A stretch of 64,000 nt of DNA from Candidatus Babeliales bacterium (lineage in GTDB: Bacteria; Babelota; Babeliae; Babelales; JANWKD01). The notes beneath the pieces were generated by a model. The model was not told the origin of the DNA and made no database searches. It saw only the letters and a program-made list of their open reading frames with translations. Each line of letters starts with the position of its first letter. The stretch's first letter is position 1. Location of the stretch: the NCBI GenBank assembly GCA_963762115.1, contig CAVXJH010000006.1, positions 1 through 64,000 of the forward strand, given 5' to 3'. The position numbers and the translations under genes were made by a program. Shown here one piece after another: positions 1,627 through 31,208 of this stretch.

Positions 1627-2646
1627 ATGAATAAATGGCTTGAAAAACTCTCAGATGATTTAAAGAAAAAATTAAAGAAAAAAACTATGCCCTCATTTGA
1701 AAAACCAATGCTTGCAACACTTACAAAAAATTATTTTTCTGATAAAAATTGGATTTTTGAAAGAAAATTCGATGGAGAACGTTGCTTTATTTATAAAGAT
1801 CATGACACGGTGTTTTTAAAATCAAGAAACAATAAAAAATTAGATGCAAGCTACCCTGAACTCATTGATAGCGCAAAAAAATTTAAGGTAAATCAGATAA
1901 TTCTCGATGGAGAAGTTGTTACTTTTGAAGGAAAATTAACAAGCTTTGCAAAATTACAACCAAGATTAGGTCTTAAAAACCCAGAACAAGCATTAGAAAC
2001 TGGTGTTACAATTTATATGTATGTGTTTGATATCTTATATCTTGATGGCTATGAACTCTTAGATTTACCCCTAGAAAATCGAAAATCAATTTTAAAAAAT
2101 TGTATTAAATTTGAAGGCCCCATCCGCTATACCACTCATAAAAATACTTATGGACTAGAATATTTCAAACAAGTTTGTCCTTTAGGATGGGAAGGCATTA
2201 TGGCCAAAAAAAGGGATAGTAACTATGTTCATATACGATCTCCCAACTGGCTAAAATTTAAGTGCATTCAAGATCAAGAATTAGTTATTGGTGGCTACAC
2301 TGAACCTAAACAATCTCGAATTGGGTTTGGATCATTATTGCTTGGCTATTACAAAGAAGGAAAATTAATATATGCAGGAAAAGTGGGAACAGGTTTTTCA
2401 GATGATTTTTTAAAAAAGTTTAGTAAAGAATTAAAAAAAATAGAAATAACTAAAAATTGTTTTTCATCAAAGTCTATGGAAGGTGATGATGTACATTTTG
2501 TAAAACCAAAATATGTCGCCGCCATAGGATTTGAAAATTGGACCAAAGACAATAAACTCAGACAACCACGCTTTCAAGGATTACGCTATGATAAAAATGC
2601 AAAAGATGTTGTAAAAGAAGTACCCAAAAAAGTCAGGAAGGCTTAA
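1627..2646 (+). CDS. ATP-dependent DNA ligase (LigD/LigC-type ligase domain only)
   Basis: Nucleotidyltransferase motifs ERKFDGER, LDGEVV, YVFDIL, EGIMAK, WLKFK, and OB domain GKVGTGF ... LRQPRFQGLRYDK. No polymerase or phosphoesterase domain. Confidence 0.92.
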   Translation: MNKWLEKLSDDLKKKLKKKTMPSFEKPMLATLTKNYFSDKNWIFERKFDGERCFIYKDHDTVFLKSRNNKKLDASYPELIDSAKKFKVNQIILDGEVVTFEGKLTSFAKLQPRLGLKNPEQALETGVTIYMYVFDILYLDGYELLDLPLENRKSILKNCIKFEGPIRYTTHKNTYGLEYFKQVCPLGWEGIMAKKRDSNYVHIRSPNWLKFKCIQDQELVIGGYTEPKQSRIGFGSLLLGYYKEGKLIYAGKVGTGFSDDFLKKFSKELKKIEITKNCFSSKSMEGDDVHFVKPKYVAAIGFENWTKDNKLRQPRFQGLRYDKNAKDVVKEVPKKVRKA

Positions 2647-2657
2647 TAAAAATACCA

Positions 2658-3437
2658 TTAAACATCATTAGACTTAACCAGTTTTTTATTTTTTACAGCA
2701 TTAGAAATTATGTCATCTTCAAGTACATCTAATACTGATAATGTTTTAAATGTATTCCAACTTGTACGAATAATTGGTGGAGGATTATAGCGATGTTGCC
2801 AAACAAATTGACGAGTTTTAGGATCAGCAGGACTTCCACTACCAAAATCGCCATATTTTTTTTTATATTTCTTATATTGTGCGTCTGATGATGTTTTTGC
2901 CACTATTGATGCTGCTCCAACAATGACATGATTTTCATCAGCATAATGCTCAGGAATTAATTGTATAGATTCAATTTTTTTCTTATTAACGTTAAAACCT
3001 TTTTTTAAAAGCAATTCTTTGAATGATTTATCAGTAAGAACGATCAATCTTTCTCTAAATCGTTTTTCACTAACTTCCCAATTATCAATATAAACTTTAT
3101 TAAATACAATTTTTCTTTGTAATTTTTTGATAATAGATAAAACGGTCAGCATTTCCCAATCATTTAAATTTAAACTTTTATCATCAATCATTGATGGTGT
3201 AATTTCCATTATTACAATACCTAAGGCAGTTTCTTTGATAATTTTTGCCAAAGCTTCTCTTTTTTTGGGCGCAATAAGCTTACTATCTTTAACCCCTAAA
3301 ATTTTCCAATTATCAATTATGCTTTGATTGGCCGCAACACCAACAATAAAAATACTGCCTATACAGGGACACTTGGTTGTATCATCAATGCCTGCTATTG
3401 TTTCTTCTTTATATTCTAACATCAAAAGATCCCCCAC
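2658..3437 (-). CDS. divergent archaeal/eukaryotic-type ribonuclease HII-like protein
   Basis: GIDD..., GVKDSKL, VYID, EHYAD..HVIVGAASIVAK, YGDFGSGSPADPKT, IIRTSW match the archaeal RNase HII layout. Confidence 0.85.
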   Translation of the reverse strand: MGDLLMLEYKEETIAGIDDTTKCPCIGSIFIVGVAANQSIIDNWKILGVKDSKLIAPKKREALAKIIKETALGIVIMEITPSMIDDKSLNLNDWEMLTVLSIIKKLQRKIVFNKVYIDNWEVSEKRFRERLIVLTDKSFKELLLKKGFNVNKKKIESIQLIPEHYADENHVIVGAASIVAKTSSDAQYKKYKKKYGDFGSGSPADPKTRQFVWQHRYNPPPIIRTSWNTFKTLSVLDVLEDDIISNAVKNKKLVKSNDV

Positions 3438-3508: not shown

Positions 3509-4342
3509 CTATTTTTGATCCTTTGGACAATAATAGGTAGATCGTCCTGCTATGGTTACTTTTTTTAGCTGATGCTTACTATTTTTTGGGCATACCATAT
3601 CAATATGTCTATGAGCCTGCAAGTAAGAAGATTTAAAGGTTGCTTTATCATTCTTGGATAAAAAATTTTGGTTTGGAAATTTTTTTATATCATTAATGCG
3701 TAATTTTATGGCATATTTTAATATTTTTTGCATTTGTGAATATATGGTTGTAACTTCATTTTCTGAAAGTTCTTTAAGAGAATGATGGGGATCTATCCCT
3801 GCTTGAAATAAAATTTCATCAGAGTATTCATTCCCAAGCCCTGCAATAATAAATTGATCCATTAAAAAAGATTTAATATTTTTTTTCTTATATTTTTCTG
3901 TAAGTGCAAAAAAGTTTTTTTTTGAAATAGTTAATGCATCAAAGCCAAGAACATTTAATTCTTTTATTTCATTAATATTTTTTAATAACCAAATCTTTCC
4001 AAATTTTCTCAAACTAATCCAATGTAAAATCGAATTATCTTTAAAAATAAAATTCACCAATGAATGATTAACTTTTTCATTACTATCATTTGAATACACT
4101 AAAAATCCTGTTAAACCAAAATGCATAACTAAAATAGTTGTTTCAGAAATAGTAATTATAAGAAACTTTCCTTTCCTTTCAACAGAGGTGAAGGCATCAT
4201 GTATAAGTTTTTTTTTAAATTGTATAAAGGTGATACCTTTTATTACTTTTGTATCAGAAGCCTCTATATCACCTATTTTTTTATGAATACAATGAGATTG
4301 TACCAAATATTTAAATGCTTCAAGCTCTGGAATTTCTGGCAT
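3509..4342 (-). CDS. mutM: Fpg/Nei family DNA glycosylase/AP lyase
   Basis: N-terminal MPEIPE, RKGKFL, HFGLTG, H2TH motif LMDQFIIAGLGNEYSDEILF, C-terminal GRSTYYCPKDQ. Confidence 0.9.
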   Translation of the reverse strand: MPEIPELEAFKYLVQSHCIHKKIGDIEASDTKVIKGITFIQFKKKLIHDAFTSVERKGKFLIITISETTILVMHFGLTGFLVYSNDSNEKVNHSLVNFIFKDNSILHWISLRKFGKIWLLKNINEIKELNVLGFDALTISKKNFFALTEKYKKKNIKSFLMDQFIIAGLGNEYSDEILFQAGIDPHHSLKELSENEVTTIYSQMQKILKYAIKLRINDIKKFPNQNFLSKNDKATFKSSYLQAHRHIDMVCPKNSKHQLKKVTIAGRSTYYCPKDQK

Positions 4343-4452: not shown

Positions 4453-5103
4453 TTATTTCATCATAAAAAATTGTATAAACCATTCTAATGCAATTTTAGA
4501 AACTTCTTCTAAACTACCTTTTTCTTCAAAAAGATGTGTTGCATGTGGAATTATAACTAACTTCTTTGTACATACTAAATTCGCATAAGCTAATTCATTA
4601 AGTTTAATAACTTCATAATCTAATTGACCAACTAATAATAATGTTGCTGCTTGTACTTTTTTTAAATACTCACCAGCTAAATCAGGCCTCCCTCCACGAG
4701 AAACAACTGCTTCAATGCATTGAGGCAGTTTTGCTGCAGCAATTAATGCCGCTGCAGCACCCGTACTGGCACCAAAATAACCTAACTTTAACATCTTAGT
4801 ATCTTGATGTGATTTTAACCATTCTGTAACCACCATGAGTCGATCTGATAGTAATGGAATATCAAACCTAAATTGTCTAGTAATCTGATCAACTACTTCC
4901 TCTTCTTGAGTAAGTAAATCAAATAAAAGAGTTGATATACCGCCAAGATTCAAAAAGTCAGCAACAAAAATATTCCTTTTGCTCAACCTGCTGCTCCCAC
5001 TCCCATGAGCAAAAACTACAAGGCCTTTTGCATTATCAACTAACCTCAATGTTCCATGAATCGATGAATCAGTAATAGGAATTGAAACTTCTAAATTTCT
5101 CAT
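4453..5103 (-). CDS. dienelactone hydrolase family alpha/beta hydrolase
   Basis: FAHGSGSSRLS, GYFGASTGAAAAL, VSRGGRPDLA, HLFEE. Start placed at ATG 5103 after an AGAGGAG RBS. Confidence 0.88.
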   Translation of the reverse strand: MRNLEVSIPITDSSIHGTLRLVDNAKGLVVFAHGSGSSRLSKRNIFVADFLNLGGISTLLFDLLTQEEEVVDQITRQFRFDIPLLSDRLMVVTEWLKSHQDTKMLKLGYFGASTGAAAALIAAAKLPQCIEAVVSRGGRPDLAGEYLKKVQAATLLLVGQLDYEVIKLNELAYANLVCTKKLVIIPHATHLFEEKGSLEEVSKIALEWFIQFFMMK

Positions 5104-5196
5104 AAAAAAACTCCTCTTAATATATTGCATTTAATGAACAAACAACTTTATAGTTTTATTATGTATAAAAACAATACCTTAAAAAAAGAGTTTTTT

Positions 5197-6504
5197 ATGA
5201 CGTATGAACCACAAGTAATTACTAAAATTCAACGAGCAGCTCTCTACTTAGATGAAACTGCAATTACTACTCTTTTGGATAACATTGGCGATGCTAACAT
5301 TGTCCTTTTAGGCGAAGCAACACATGGAACTCATGAATTTTATGAACTACGTTCTGAAATTAGCAAAAGACTCATTCTTGAGAAAAACTTCACCACAATC
5401 ACCATTGAAGGCGACTGGCCAGATGCTTATGCTGTTAATGCATACATACAAAATAATGCCTATAATAATGCACAAGAAGCTCTACAATCATTTGATCGAT
5501 TTCCAACATGGATGTGGCAAAATATTCCTATGCTAGAACTTGTTGAATGGCTTAAAAAATATAACCAGCAAAAAAATAATTCTATTTATTTTTATGGTCT
5601 CGATTTATATAGTCTTTATAAATCAATTGATGCCATCATTACTACCCTTACAAAAATTAATCCTGAAGTAGCAAAAAAAGTAAAAACAAATTATTCATGT
5701 TTAGAATTATTTCGTGACAATCCACAAGCATATGGTTATTATCTTTTTTCTCAATTAACAAAATCATGTCAAAAAGAAGTTATTGAAGCATTAAAAAATA
5801 TTGAAACAATAGAATGGGAAAAATTAAAAAATAAAATCTCATCAAAAGATGAATTTTTTATTATGCAAAATGAACGCGTTGTAAAAAATTCTGAAAATTA
5901 TTATCGATCACTCTTTATCAATGAGATTAATAATTGGAACTTGCGTGATACTCACATGATGGAAACAATAAAAGAAATTATTAAGCATCATAAAAAAAAT
6001 GGCATTAAAAATCCAAAAATTATTATTTGGGCTCATAATTCTCATATTGGTAATTCTGCTGCAACACAAATGAGTGCTCAAGGAGAATTCAATATCGGAC
6101 ATTTAATAAAAGAAAAATTTGGAAAACAGGCATATAGCGTAGGTTTTACCACCTATCAAGGAACTGTTTCTGCAGCTCCTGAATGGCATATGCCAGTCGA
6201 ACGAAAAAATATTAGGACTGCGTTAGTTAACAGCTATGAAGATCTGTTTCATACCGTGGGCATCTCAAAATTTTTATTATCATTAGAAGATAAAGATATC
6301 GTGCCAAAACAGTTACTTGAACGTGCTATCGGCGTTATTTATGCACCCCTTACAGAAAGACAAAGTCATTATTTTTATGCATCACTCGCCTATCAATTTG
6401 ATGCTGTAATTCACTTTGATACCACTTCAGCATTAGAACCGCTTGAAAAAACTACTCAATGGATCGAAGGAGAAGTCCCTGAAACATACCCTTCTGGATT
6501 ATAA
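5197..6504 (+). CDS. erythromycin esterase family protein
   Basis: LLGEATHGTHEFY, IEGDWPDA, FPTWMW, GLDLYS, WNLRDTHM, WAHNSHIG, C-terminal PETYPSGL. Confidence 0.9.
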   Translation: MTYEPQVITKIQRAALYLDETAITTLLDNIGDANIVLLGEATHGTHEFYELRSEISKRLILEKNFTTITIEGDWPDAYAVNAYIQNNAYNNAQEALQSFDRFPTWMWQNIPMLELVEWLKKYNQQKNNSIYFYGLDLYSLYKSIDAIITTLTKINPEVAKKVKTNYSCLELFRDNPQAYGYYLFSQLTKSCQKEVIEALKNIETIEWEKLKNKISSKDEFFIMQNERVVKNSENYYRSLFINEINNWNLRDTHMMETIKEIIKHHKKNGIKNPKIIIWAHNSHIGNSAATQMSAQGEFNIGHLIKEKFGKQAYSVGFTTYQGTVSAAPEWHMPVERKNIRTALVNSYEDLFHTVGISKFLLSLEDKDIVPKQLLERAIGVIYAPLTERQSHYFYASLAYQFDAVIHFDTTSALEPLEKTTQWIEGEVPETYPSGL

Positions 6505-6511
6505 AATGTAT

Positions 6512-7363
6512 TTATGAGGTAACTAATAAGGTCTCAATAAACTTACTTATATCATACACTTCAATCTTACCCCTTGAGCATTGATCAAGGGTATTAGTAA
6601 CATAAATTTTTGTTAAAGGACTTTCTTGTAATTTTTCACAGGCACCTGCAGTAAATATGCCATGGGTTGCTGCTGCAGCAACCTCTGTTGCACCTAATTG
6701 CTTTAATGCTTTGCATGCTTCAATAATAGTATTACCCGTAGAAATAATGTCATCTATTAAAATAACTTTTTTTCCTGACACAGTTCCATCAATAGATTCT
6801 ATTCTCACTTTTTCATGTTCTGGTCTTACTTTATGCAAAAAAACTATTTCTTTATTACATGCTTGAGCGACCTGCTGGGCAAATTCAAATGCCCCTTTAT
6901 CTGGAGCAGCAATAACATCATAATTTTTTGCAGCTGAACAAAAAAAATCTAAATCAATACAATTTTTAAAGTTCAGCAATGAATGTAAAGTAAGTGCTGC
7001 ATGTGCATGTATAATATAAAAAGTATTAATCGAAAAAGTATTTAAGATATGACAAATAAATTGTGCACTACCAGCTTCTCCTGATAATGGCATGATTTGT
7101 CTTGCATAACCAAAATAAGTAATAAAAAGATTAATTTTTTGAGCACCGGCTCTTCTTAATGCATCTAATAAAAAAAATAATTCAAGCAAATTATCTGCCG
7201 GAGATTGTGTAGATGCAACTACCCAAATTTCCTTTTGCTGCACATCTTGATCAACCTTAATATAAATTTCACCATCACTAAATTTTTTATTACTATATCC
7301 AACATGCGATAGATTAATTTTTTCAGAAAATTGTTCGGCAGAATTGGTATAAAAAATCTTCAT
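6512..7363 (-). CDS. prs: ribose-phosphate pyrophosphokinase
   Basis: FSDGEIYI, YFGYARQ, APDKGA, LIDDIISTGNT, ATHGIF, VTNT. Confidence 0.9.
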   Translation of the reverse strand: MKIFYTNSAEQFSEKINLSHVGYSNKKFSDGEIYIKVDQDVQQKEIWVVASTQSPADNLLELFFLLDALRRAGAQKINLFITYFGYARQIMPLSGEAGSAQFICHILNTFSINTFYIIHAHAALTLHSLLNFKNCIDLDFFCSAAKNYDVIAAPDKGAFEFAQQVAQACNKEIVFLHKVRPEHEKVRIESIDGTVSGKKVILIDDIISTGNTIIEACKALKQLGATEVAAAATHGIFTAGACEKLQESPLTKIYVTNTLDQCSRGKIEVYDISKFIETLLVTS

Positions 7364-8001
7364 GTATTGGCATCTCGCAATAATTTTATAGCTTGAGCAT
7401 CATCAACTTGCTCAAAATTTCTATAAAATTGACTCACACTATAAAAAACATCGGGAACTTCTACACAGACAACTTCATCAGCACATTCTTTAATTTTTTG
7501 TAATGCTTCTTTTGATGCAACGGGTAATGCTACAACAATTTTTTTAGGATTGTACTCTTTTACTAATGCTAAAGTAATTAATAAAGTATTTCCCGTTGCA
7601 ACCCCATCATCAACAATAATGACAATCTTATCTTGCAAAGAAAATGGCGGCATATTTTTTCGATACGTTTCATTACGCTCTTTAATTATCTTGCGTATTG
7701 TAGCAACCTCATGAGCTATATATTCTTGAAGTTCTGGCCTATTTTTAAAATTACTATCCAAAAAAATATGCTTCTCACTGGCTGCTCCAATTGCATATTC
7801 AGGATTTGATGGAAAACCAATTTTTTTAGTAAAAATCACATCTAAGGGAAGACACAATTTTTTTGCAAGCACATACCCAAGCTCAAGTCCACCTCTCGGT
7901 ATTGCAACTATGATTGCATCAGGATTATTTTTGTACTTTTCTAAAAGTGGTAGCAATTGATCTGCTGCATCATAACGTGTTTGAAACATATGAATACCCA
8001 T
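7360..8001 (-). CDS. phosphoribosyltransferase family protein
   Basis: AIPRGG, NPEYAIGA, PRPP-binding loop IVDDGVATGNT, VSQFYRNFEQV. Overlaps the prs start by 4 bp. Confidence 0.9.
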   Translation of the reverse strand: MGIHMFQTRYDAADQLLPLLEKYKNNPDAIIVAIPRGGLELGYVLAKKLCLPLDVIFTKKIGFPSNPEYAIGAASEKHIFLDSNFKNRPELQEYIAHEVATIRKIIKERNETYRKNMPPFSLQDKIVIIVDDGVATGNTLLITLALVKEYNPKKIVVALPVASKEALQKIKECADEVVCVEVPDVFYSVSQFYRNFEQVDDAQAIKLLRDANT

Positions 8002-9388: not shown

Positions 9389-10216
9389 TTATAGCCGTAG
9401 GATATCTGCTATTTCAGGTGGGATAGAAATAAATGCGTCAAGAATTCGTTCGACATCTTCTTGAGAGAAGGGGCCCATAGATGTTTGAGCAGATTGATCT
9501 ATTCTAGGTGATTCATAAGGGCTACGAAATCGCTTTGTGGTATTCGATGTATTTAACACTGAATTTGATTGTGAATGCATTGTATCATCAATTTTTCTTT
9601 TTTTTGATCGATGAACTTTATCGTAATGTGCTTTATATTCTTTTTGGTTTGGAAATGTTCGTATGTGGTTGCATTTCTTGCAATTATGAGGAGTTTGATC
9701 TGATTGATGATCTTTAACTGATCGATGAACTTCATAGTAATGTTGGTTATATTCTTTTTGGTTTGGAAATGTTCGTATGGGGTTGCATTTCCTGCAAGCA
9801 TGAGGAGCTTCTGATCGATGATCTTTAACTAATCGATGATCTTTACCGTAATGTTGGTTATATTCTTTTTGGTTTGGAAATATTTGTATGGGATTGCATT
9901 TCCTGCAAGTATAAGGAGTTTGATCTAATTGATGAACTTCATAGTAATGTTTTTTATATTCTTCTTGACTTGGAAATGTTTGTGCAGGGTTACATTTCCT
10001 ACAACGAGAACGGGATAATTTAGTATTGTTCTGTGGCTCGGGTTGCGCTCTAGCGCAAGCAGTTAATCCAAGATAGACTGACGTTGGGTTGAGATAAGTT
10101 GGTTGCGTGTTGTTCTCATTAAAGAATTCAGCGTGTTGTTCCATTGCAAATAATGAGCTGCATGAGAACGCAAGGAGAAGCGCTGTAATCAATCTCGTTT
10201 GAGATCTAATCTTCAT
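9389..10216 (-). CDS. secreted protein with four C2H2-like zinc fingers and a basic NLS-like motif
   Basis: Signal peptide ...SLFA|MEQ; 4x C-x2-C-x5-F-x5-Y-x2-H-x4-H; then SKKRK. Confidence 0.75.
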   Translation of the reverse strand: MKIRSQTRLITALLLAFSCSSLFAMEQHAEFFNENNTQPTYLNPTSVYLGLTACARAQPEPQNNTKLSRSRCRKCNPAQTFPSQEEYKKHYYEVHQLDQTPYTCRKCNPIQIFPNQKEYNQHYGKDHRLVKDHRSEAPHACRKCNPIRTFPNQKEYNQHYYEVHRSVKDHQSDQTPHNCKKCNHIRTFPNQKEYKAHYDKVHRSKKRKIDDTMHSQSNSVLNTSNTTKRFRSPYESPRIDQSAQTSMGPFSQEDVERILDAFISIPPEIADILRL

Positions 10217-10407
10217 AATGAAGTGCCATATACTATTTAACTTTTTTTTAATAATGAAATTTCTTTCTAAATCTAGCATAAAAAGAGTTCAAGCTTAAAC
10301 AATGAAAAGCTTTTATTTTGATTTTGATTAGGGTTTTTTGTAGGATTATGTCTTGTAATTTTTTTTGCTTATATGATGACACTCAATCATACAAAAAAAT
10401 AATGTTA

Positions 10408-30515: not shown

Positions 30516-31208
30516 TCAGAAAATTTCTTGTTGCTCATTAAAATCATCTTCTTGCTCACCGATTAGCCAAGCACCTTGTAAAAAGTTAATACGATGAATA
30601 ACCGAATGCCCTAAATCTTGCACCAAAGCACGATGCTTGGGTGTAGCATACCCTTTATGAGCAGCAAGCAAATAGCCGGGAATAGCGTTATCAAAATGAA
30701 TCATAAGACGATCGCGTGTTACTTTTGCAACAATGGAAGCAGCGGCAATTGAACTAGATTTTTTTTCACCAAAAGGGAAATAAAGAACATCAATATTGGA
30801 AAAAGGCGAGTTATCAAGCCTTAAAGGCATAGCATCAATCACCGTTTTTGATGGTAAAGGGCAACCTTGAGACATAAGCTGCATGAAAGCTCGTTTCATT
30901 GCCTTAAGCGTTGCTTGATAAATGTTATGCGTATCAATTGCACGATGATGCAAAGATGCTGTTGCATGCCAGCTATTTTTGAGAATCCAAGAATATGCCT
31001 TATCACGTTCCTCTTTGGTCATTATTTTTGAATCCTTAAGCAAACGATGGTTTTTACCCGGATGCAATATGACAGCAGCAACCACAACCGGTCCTGCCAA
31101 ACACCCACGACCAACTTCATCAATACCACAAATGAGCTTATTTTCTGCCCATGCAGTATGCTCAAAATGATTTTTATTAAAACGTTCTTTGTAGCGAATG
31201 GTTGTCAT
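30516..31208 (-). CDS. rnhB: ribonuclease HII (canonical bacterial type)
   Basis: GIDEVGRGCLAGPV, KDSK, IAAASIVAKVTRD, HKGYAT..H. Confidence 0.95.
   Translation of the reverse strand: MTTIRYKERFNKNHFEHTAWAENKLICGIDEVGRGCLAGPVVVAAVILHPGKNHRLLKDSKIMTKEERDKAYSWILKNSWHATASLHHRAIDTHNIYQATLKAMKRAFMQLMSQGCPLPSKTVIDAMPLRLDNSPFSNIDVLYFPFGEKKSSSIAAASIVAKVTRDRLMIHFDNAIPGYLLAAHKGYATPKHRALVQDLGHSVIHRINFLQGAWLIGEQEDDFNEQQEIF

Follow-up and report, generated by a model that had tools for sequence, protein, structure and literature searches.

Gene content of the locus and assignment of the RNase HII variant

The 64,000-nucleotide stretch of a Candidatus Babeliales genome analyzed here (hereinafter the window) encodes two RNase HII homologs, one of which sits between the genes for a DNA ligase and a DNA glycosylase. 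The genes concerned are:

1627..2646, plus strand: stand-alone LigD-type ATP-dependent DNA ligase (TIGR02779, 279.8 bits against a cut-off of 227.75)
2658..3437, minus strand: archaeal-type RNase HII variant, open frame of 259 amino acids from a GTG
3509..4342, minus strand: Fpg/Nei-family glycosylase-lyase (PF01149 and PF06831; under the fpg equivalog cut-offs)
30516..31208, minus strand: canonical bacterial rnhB (NF000595, 175.7 bits against a cut-off of 167; aligns to Thermotoga maritima RNase H2)

The fpg gene lies upstream of the variant RNase gene on the same strand, and the ligase gene converges on it from the opposite strand; hence, in the window only the former can share a transcript with it. 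A promoter scan returned 24 sites against 23.2 in shuffled sequences, and a terminator was not found. The glycosylase has a variant finger of the form C-x5-H-x14-C-x2-D. An ATG at 3422 (254 amino acids), with GGGGGA seven bases upstream, is the likelier start of the variant, and residues are numbered throughout in the 259-residue frame that starts at the GTG.

The variant matches the RNase HII domain (PF01351) with 97 bits and exceeds the cut-off of the archaeal RNase HII model TIGR00729 (143.8 bits against 123.3), while remaining below the cut-offs of the bacterial rnhB models, which the rnhB of the window passes or approaches. Its predicted structure (pLDDT 94.4) has the Pyrococcus horikoshii RNase HII as its top fold match (Foldseek E-value 2.9e-18 against 1UAX), and the nearest solved structures by both sequence and fold are archaeal RNases HII. 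An archaeal layout beside a canonical rnhB, as proposed in an earlier sequence-only reading of this DNA, is thus borne out by profile, closest sequences and predicted structure, and the second gene indeed carries DEVGRG (31104-31121) and HKGY (30648-30659), along with AKVTRD. Classification of the variant as an RNase HIII is ruled out by its score against the rnhC profile TIGR00716 (44.1 against a cut-off of 161.2), by the first strand of the model, which begins at residue 8 and leaves no N-terminal TBP-like domain, and by the sequence T-K-C-P in place of the first sensor motif. The genome itself (95% complete) encodes a canonical rnhB, RNase HI, Ku, two Nfo matches and two 5'-3' exonuclease domains, with no XthA family member found in it. 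As both rnhB and RNase HI are present, the variant is not a stand-in for either in this genome.

Comparison of the variant with six homologs gave dN/dS values of 0.09-0.23 in all six pairs, with dS near saturation. These values and the family-wide conservation of the motif described below rule out decay or a change peculiar to this genome, one of two outcomes that the sequence-only reading had named as overturning it; the sequence comparisons show the open frame to be intact, of the archaeal RNase HII type and subject to purifying selection.

Active site and junction-sensing residues

We mapped the functional residues of the variant through alignments to archaeal RNases HII and T. maritima RNase H2. 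All lie on the minus strand:

3366..3386: DDTTKCP, two catalytic acids (D18-D19 at 3381-3386) and TKC replacing GRG; T21-K22-C23-P24 (3366-3377) stand where GRGP is expected
3279..3287: DSK, kept (119 of the 120 listed homologs; one lacks coverage)
3075..3086: DNWE, family signature with the third acid D118 (YIDNWE; D at 3084-3086)
2937..2948: HYAD, with the fourth acid D167 (2937-2939; Asp in 120 of the 120 listed homologs)
2886..2897: KTSS, phosphate-binding Lys181 kept, Ser184 replacing the GRG-supporting Arg
2823..2843: GSGSPAD (of GSGSPADP), S202 (2832-2834) replacing the junction-sensing Tyr

In T. maritima terms T21-K22-C23 correspond to G21-R22-G23, S184 to R141 and S202 to the junction tyrosine, whereas K47, K138 and R182 are kept as K53, K181 and R224. 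Of the arginine pair supporting the GRG motif (T. maritima R141 and R182) the first is therefore lost to Ser184 and the second is kept as Arg224. The functions of the GRG, Tyr, Lys and Arg residues were assigned in earlier structural work (PMC3025331, PMC3060507; here and below we draw on the available portions of the papers cited), and the Tyr and GRG have been called absolutely conserved or invariant in RNase H2 (PMC13492167, PMC3060507).

A homolog search at an E-value of 0.001 recovered 291 proteins, and residues were counted in the 120 that were listed, 119 of which share 56-76% identity with the variant and one of which is a fragment at 98%. The sensor motif reads DDATKCP in 106 of these, DDTTKCP in 12 and DEATKCP in one, with one sequence not covering the site; hence D[DE][AT]TKCP occurs in 119 of the 120, and TKC in all 119 that cover it. 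At the tyrosine site there is Ser in 102, Asn in 18 and Tyr in none. The position of Ser184 is Ser in 120 of 120, as against Arg in 121 of 121 canonical representatives, and the family signature is DNWE in 118 and DNWD in two. D18, D118, D167 and the DSK are invariant wherever covered in the 120 core homologs listed. Such invariance at 56-76% identity is what a working active site would show; the variant is predicted to be catalytically active and has probably lost incision at single ribonucleotides. The substitution of Asp for Glu at the second acid was rejected as a marker of specificity since 14 of the 121 canonical GRG/Tyr representatives also carry Asp.

Every motif named in the sequence-only reading, both the kept GIDD, YID, AD and DSK and the altered DDTTKCP and GSGSPADP, was located as named. 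Its central claim, that both junction sensors are replaced (GRG by TKC and Tyr by Ser), stands for the two elements that it named, though it missed the third change at the equivalent of R141. Its suggestion of an undescribed conserved subfamily agrees with the motif in 119 of 120 listed homologs and with the open-access literature that we searched. The changed specificity that it proposed, with lesions, flaps or hybrids as candidate substrates, is plausible from mutants of other RNases H2 and from gene context.

Phylogenetic extent and viral relatives of the family

Members of the family are labeled plain "ribonuclease HII" in the naming sources. Besides the replaced sensors, the core family is marked by about 20 inserted residues and by a motif conserved at the C-terminus. 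We ran a profile search over 1.84 billion representatives, the best 150 matches of which were listed; setting aside the top match and 11 core-like entries left 138 representatives outside the core. The three sensor elements (G-x-G, Arg and Tyr) are all present in 121 of these, all absent from 17 and mixed in none. In a tree built after removal of the motif columns, by a quick search that included 57 of the 121 canonical rows, the 11 core rows group together (SH-aLRT 99) inside a clade that also holds the 17 sensor-less representatives (SH-aLRT 91); a second sequence set gives the two clades supports of 97 and 99. With this sampling and search the deeper branch is moderately supported. As the 17 sensor-less representatives form one clade, the joint loss of the sensor elements probably traces to about one event. 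Across this wider clade the replacement residues differ, and the third or the fourth Asp is changed in three of the 17 outer-clade representatives each. An archaeal RNase HII (L041:4952-5608) with DETGKGP and GSGNPND keeps the glycines and is devoid of the Tyr and the supporting Arg; it falls outside the sensor-less clade and apparently represents a separate loss of these two residues.

The wider clade includes viral proteins, and Tyr-less members were found on three IMG/VR contigs of prokaryotic viruses. On two of these Ku lies within 5 kb, on L095 (682-2509) together with an ATP-dependent ligase and on L096 (2860-3642) by itself, suggesting a possible viral end-joining kit; the third has a PriX-like gene near the Tyr-less member. 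A LigD polymerase was not found among the flank genes scanned around these viral relatives. Annotated phages and plasmids gave weak matches only (27-37% identity; 4 and 8 records), which, where annotated, are ordinary ribonuclease HII. The viral structure library held no close match and the ESM Atlas only generic archaeal RNase HII clusters. Longer or fused forms (539-2000 amino acids) were not found at an E-value of 1e-20, which is weak evidence. A metagenome scan for the outer clade gave 496 loci, and the 80 of them that were kept encode canonical enzymes for the most part. Frameshifted, truncated and remnant copies (L035, L039, L042, L043, L076 and L084) suggest that the variant is frequently lost; one genome (G010) has two intact copies.

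Gene neighborhoods and co-occurrence with LigD components

Neighborhoods were compared across 43 loci (of the 43 found, an archaeal one was dropped and the window added). A ligase, polymerase, phosphoesterase or Fpg-like gene lies within 6 kb of the RNase gene at 16 of them (ligase at 13, Fpg-like at 8, polymerase at 7 and phosphoesterase at 5), against a rough chance expectation, estimated from genome size, of one or two loci. There is no such neighbor at 27 of the 43, many of which are cut by contig ends. At three loci outside the phylum (L007, L016 and L025) the RNase gene is the first gene of a tight same-strand LigD row: L016 has, on one strand, the RNase, phosphoesterase, ligase, polymerase and Fpg genes with gaps of less than 40 bases, and L007 and L025 share the first four. 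Other neighbors include an Ere-like esterase, phosphoribosyltransferases, a ferritin-like protein and DUF3175.

A protein of 230 amino acids with the metallo-beta-lactamase fold and an intact HxHxDH motif, whose nearest folds are YhfI, PhnP and RNase Z, is encoded at nine of the 43 loci after removal of two false cluster members. Members of this family include:

L012:7571-8263
L015:6726-7418
L025:9246-9953
L028:4698-5354
L030:1691-2401

Its close type is found in 24 of 261 genomes of the phylum, every one of them polymerase-positive, and its distant type often lies about 3 kb or less from the primase-polymerase or phosphoesterase gene. This uncharacterized protein is likely to be a further part of the module. 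It was not found in the genome of the window, which encodes the whole split LigD set, with the ligase in the window and the phosphoesterase and primase-polymerase adjoining on another contig (C3:215975-217613).

Among the 261 genomes of the same phylum 26 gave matches, of which 25 were counted as carriers (one frameshifted) and one, with a 29-residue remnant, as a non-carrier. A further RNase HII (PF01351) is encoded in 22 of these 25 carriers (of the other three, two gave one match each and the last is ambiguous), and four of the five carriers tried outside the phylum have a second PF01351 gene. The variant is an accessory second copy beside the canonical RNase HII. In a set of 41 carrier genomes (one duplicate and the archaeon excluded; four of the 41 copies are broken) the LigD primase-polymerase is present in 41, the phosphoesterase in 40, Ku in 21 and the Ere-like esterase, taken as control, in 10. 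Ku was found in only two of the 18 carriers outside the phylum, although draft genomes may be incomplete; as just 21 of the 41 carriers have it, strict dependence on Ku was rejected.

Within the phylum, with tests stratified by family, the primase-polymerase is present in 25 of 25 carriers and 135 of 236 non-carriers (p 0.059), Ku in 20 and 49 respectively (p 0.0016), Fpg-like proteins in 15 and 18 (p 5e-5) and the close-type metallo-hydrolase in 13 and 11 (p 4e-11). Since the stratified p is 0.059, the link to the polymerase is not significant within the phylum, where it is common (160 of 261 genomes); Fpg-like matches occur in just 33 of the 261. In a second class, that of G282, the polymerase is rarer (12 of 121 genomes), and the five full copies and one remnant of the variant all fall among these 12 (p 4e-5 without the center), with none in the 109 polymerase-negative genomes. 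The five carriers were already in the locus set, so that only the denominators are new. All these p values overstate the associations because related genomes are not independent. Conversely, 135 of the 160 polymerase-positive genomes of the phylum have no full copy, which makes the variant dispensable. The dependence is one-way: the variant occurs with the polymerase, and the polymerase mostly without the variant. The tie to the neighboring ligase and glycosylase proposed from the window thus recurs in other genomes, though the glycosylase accompanies only 15 of the 25 same-phylum carriers; the constant partners are instead the split LigD primase-polymerase (41 of 41) and phosphoesterase (40 of 41), and in the window the ligase gene converges from the opposite strand.

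Functional implications

LigD-type polymerases insert ribonucleotides, which the phosphoesterase resects along with removing 3'-phosphates, and the ligase of this system prefers a 3' ribonucleotide (PMC4797286). In mycobacteria LigC/Prim-PolC fill gaps of 1-3 nucleotides after Fpg, with replacement of the patch by PolA merely surmised by the authors (PMC5663958). The 1-3 ribonucleotides left by LigD/LigC polymerases resist RNase H1, and their removal is likewise surmised (PMC5663958, PMC5224475). RNase H1 requires about four ribonucleotides, and Escherichia coli RNase H2 restricts its cut to the position before the last one (PMC5224475). Ordinary RNase HII has also been proposed for clean-up of LigD patches (PMC7072297). 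In yeast, the Y219S mutant of RNase H2 is inactive on RNA-DNA junctions, with RNA-RNA cleavage above that of Y219A (PMC3597693). From these data we infer a role in short-patch processing, and tentatively favor, at somewhat less than an even chance, the reading that the variant is an accessory two-metal nuclease that has dispensed with the GRG/Tyr junction sensor and acts on the short RNA patches laid by the LigD primase-polymerase. Fpg or a break would give rise to a gap, the phosphoesterase would clear its 3' end, the polymerase would fill it with rNTPs and the ligase would seal it, these steps being established in other organisms and presumed here. The variant would then cut inside the RNA run or at its start, cuts at which the canonical RNase HII and RNase HI would be poor, whereupon PolA could swap the patch for DNA.

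In favor of this are the residues themselves, since the replacements strike both glycines, the Arg at position 184 and the Tyr at 202 but spare the DSK, Lys181, Arg224 and the catalytic acids, and the all-or-none pattern of the sensor elements in the 138 representatives outside the core. Further points in its favor are the Y219S data, the second RNase HII gene in most carriers, the presence of the primase-polymerase in 41 and the phosphoesterase in 40 of 41 carriers against 10 for the control esterase, the confinement of the second-class copies to polymerase-positive genomes, the partner genes at 16 of 43 loci and the resistance of LigD/LigC patches to RNase H1. Against it stand the within-phylum p of 0.059 among kin that are not independent, the polymerase-positive non-carriers, the 27 of 43 loci with no partner, the four broken copies in 41 and the viral flanks, in which no LigD polymerase was seen among the genes scanned. 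Moreover, loss of the Tyr alone nearly abolishes activity of the yeast, human and T. maritima enzymes (PMC3597693, PMC3025331, PMC3060507), and RNase H3, a hybrid cutter with no Tyr, keeps both glycines and an acid at the next position (PMC4132731). As these glycines and the acid are missing, the variant family may not read the ribose at all.

The same absence favors a nuclease that is blind to the sugar and specific for structure, trimming DNA ends, 5' flaps raised by strand displacement, blocked nicks or damaged sugars prior to ligation. Such an enzyme, the main rival reading and in our view a real if unlikely possibility, would account for the loss of both glycines, which neither RNase H2 nor RNase H3 shows, for the enrichment of Ku in same-phylum carriers and for Ku, in one case with an ATP-dependent ligase, within 5 kb of the Tyr-less viral relatives on two of three contigs; the LigD-type polymerase is also known to displace strands (PMC4797286). 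However, Ku is present in just two of 18 carriers outside the phylum, the genome of the window is already equipped with Nfo matches and 5'-3' exonuclease domains, two of each, and the constant partners of the variant are ribonucleotide-using enzymes.

Ordinary ribonucleotide excision by a dedicated enzyme appears improbable. It would have the Thr, Cys and Ser/Asn rebuild the contact with the 2'-OH, the variant cutting at a single rNMP after LigD sealing, and it gains from the invariance of the replacement residues in the core family, from the contacts of the GRG being made through backbone amides, with T. maritima G21S retaining some junction cleavage (PMC3025331), and from the likelihood that Fpg, phosphoesterase, polymerase and ligase together would leave a single rNMP. 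The aromatic ring is nevertheless required for junction selection, Y219S being inactive on junctions (PMC3597693), most carriers (22 of 25) still have a canonical rnhB, and the replacement residues vary in the wider clade. Quite improbable, too, is a nucleic-acid-binding subunit, catalytically weak or dead, whose task would be to hold or shield nicks and RNA patches on behalf of the LigD components: single sensor mutations do abolish activity in three characterized enzymes (PMC3597693, PMC3025331, PMC3060507), the core family has gained its insertion and C-terminal motif, and the third or fourth Asp is altered in three of 17 outer-clade representatives each, but D18, D118, D167 and the DSK are invariant where covered in the 120 core homologs listed. 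A passenger of a stress island or a virus-derived hybrid nuclease traveling with dormancy genes, with no tie to LigD, is very improbable, as the esterase accompanies 10 of 41 carriers against 41 of 41 for the polymerase, the RNase heads the LigD rows at three loci and none of 109 polymerase-negative genomes of the second class carries it, even though its neighbors include the Ere-like esterase, phosphoribosyltransferases, ferritin-like protein and DUF3175 and the within-phylum polymerase link is weak once stratified.

Relationship to known enzymes

The variant shares with the archaeal RNases HII (TIGR00729; 1UAX of P. horikoshii, 1IO2 of Thermococcus kodakarensis and 1I39 of Archaeoglobus fulgidus) the fold (TM-score 0.73 by query and 0.87 by target), about 30% identity, the four acids, the DSK, the GSG-x-P-x-D loop and a single chain. 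Unlike them it has TKC for GRG, Ser/Asn for Tyr and Ser for the supporting Arg, together with the DNWE, the insertion of about 20 residues and the C-terminal motif, and it is a bacterial second copy tied to a split LigD. RNase HIII (rnhC) and the engineered yeast P45D-Y219A are, like the variant, Tyr-less type 2 RNases H, and do not cut single ribonucleotides (PMC3597693, PMC4132731); a 2026 review names RNase HIII as the type 2 enzyme with no Tyr (PMC13492167). RNase HIII, however, keeps GxG followed by Asp, Glu or Ser (rule from PMC4132731) where the variant has Pro24, and possesses the N-terminal TBP-like domain that the variant lacks. By fold and profile the variant belongs with the archaeal-type RNases HII, yet it lacks the sensor features that define canonical RNase HII and those that define RNase HIII.

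At the level of the module, the split LigD of Methanocella (ligase, polymerase and phosphoesterase) and mycobacterial LigC/Prim-PolC with Fpg share with the variant-bearing genomes separate genes, Fpg and repair by ribonucleotide insertion. In the available portions of the papers on these systems an RNase HII paralog is not described as a part, patch removal being ascribed to the phosphoesterase or PolA (PMC4797286, PMC5663958). Mycobacterial RnhD likewise adds a further RNase H2-like protein to a bacterium that has LigD; unlike the variant, it is fused to a (p)ppGpp synthetase in Mycobacterium smegmatis (PMC5224475). In the open-access literature searched (titles and abstract openings) neither the subfamily nor an RNase HII gene in a LigD row is described.

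It is conceivable, though we would rate it as possible rather than probable, that the family constitutes a fourth RNase H specificity class, a lineage of prokaryotic viruses and bacteria that dropped the whole ribose-junction sensor and came to serve a LigD module, itself largely independent of Ku, as its dedicated nuclease for clean-up or end processing, with a substrate beyond those of RNases H1, H2 and H3. The module would then comprise the RNase, phosphoesterase, ligase, primase-polymerase, Fpg-like glycosylase and the uncharacterized metallo-beta-lactamase-fold hydrolase. RNase H3, the natural exception in papers on RNase H2, keeps the glycines that this family has lost as well. The family is widespread and under purifying selection, but the plain name "ribonuclease HII" conceals it. 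It offers a candidate for one step in LigD/LigC repair, namely the removal of 1-3 nucleotide RNA patches, provides a natural parallel to the excision-defective RNase H2 made by engineering, and may have a new nuclease specificity.

Other features of the window

Beyond the glycosylase gene lies a cluster (4453-8001), also seen at L001, for an alpha/beta hydrolase, a PRPP synthetase, a phosphoribosyltransferase and a protein that resembles erythromycin esterases but scores far below the Ere cut-offs. At 107-1518 two frames that overlap encode DUF1254 and DUF1214, usually parts of one protein; a long run of T lies near 767-776, and the two frames are perhaps one frameshifted gene. An ORF at 9389-10279 contains repeated C-x2-C...Y-x2-H-x3-H units, which we take to be zinc-finger-like.
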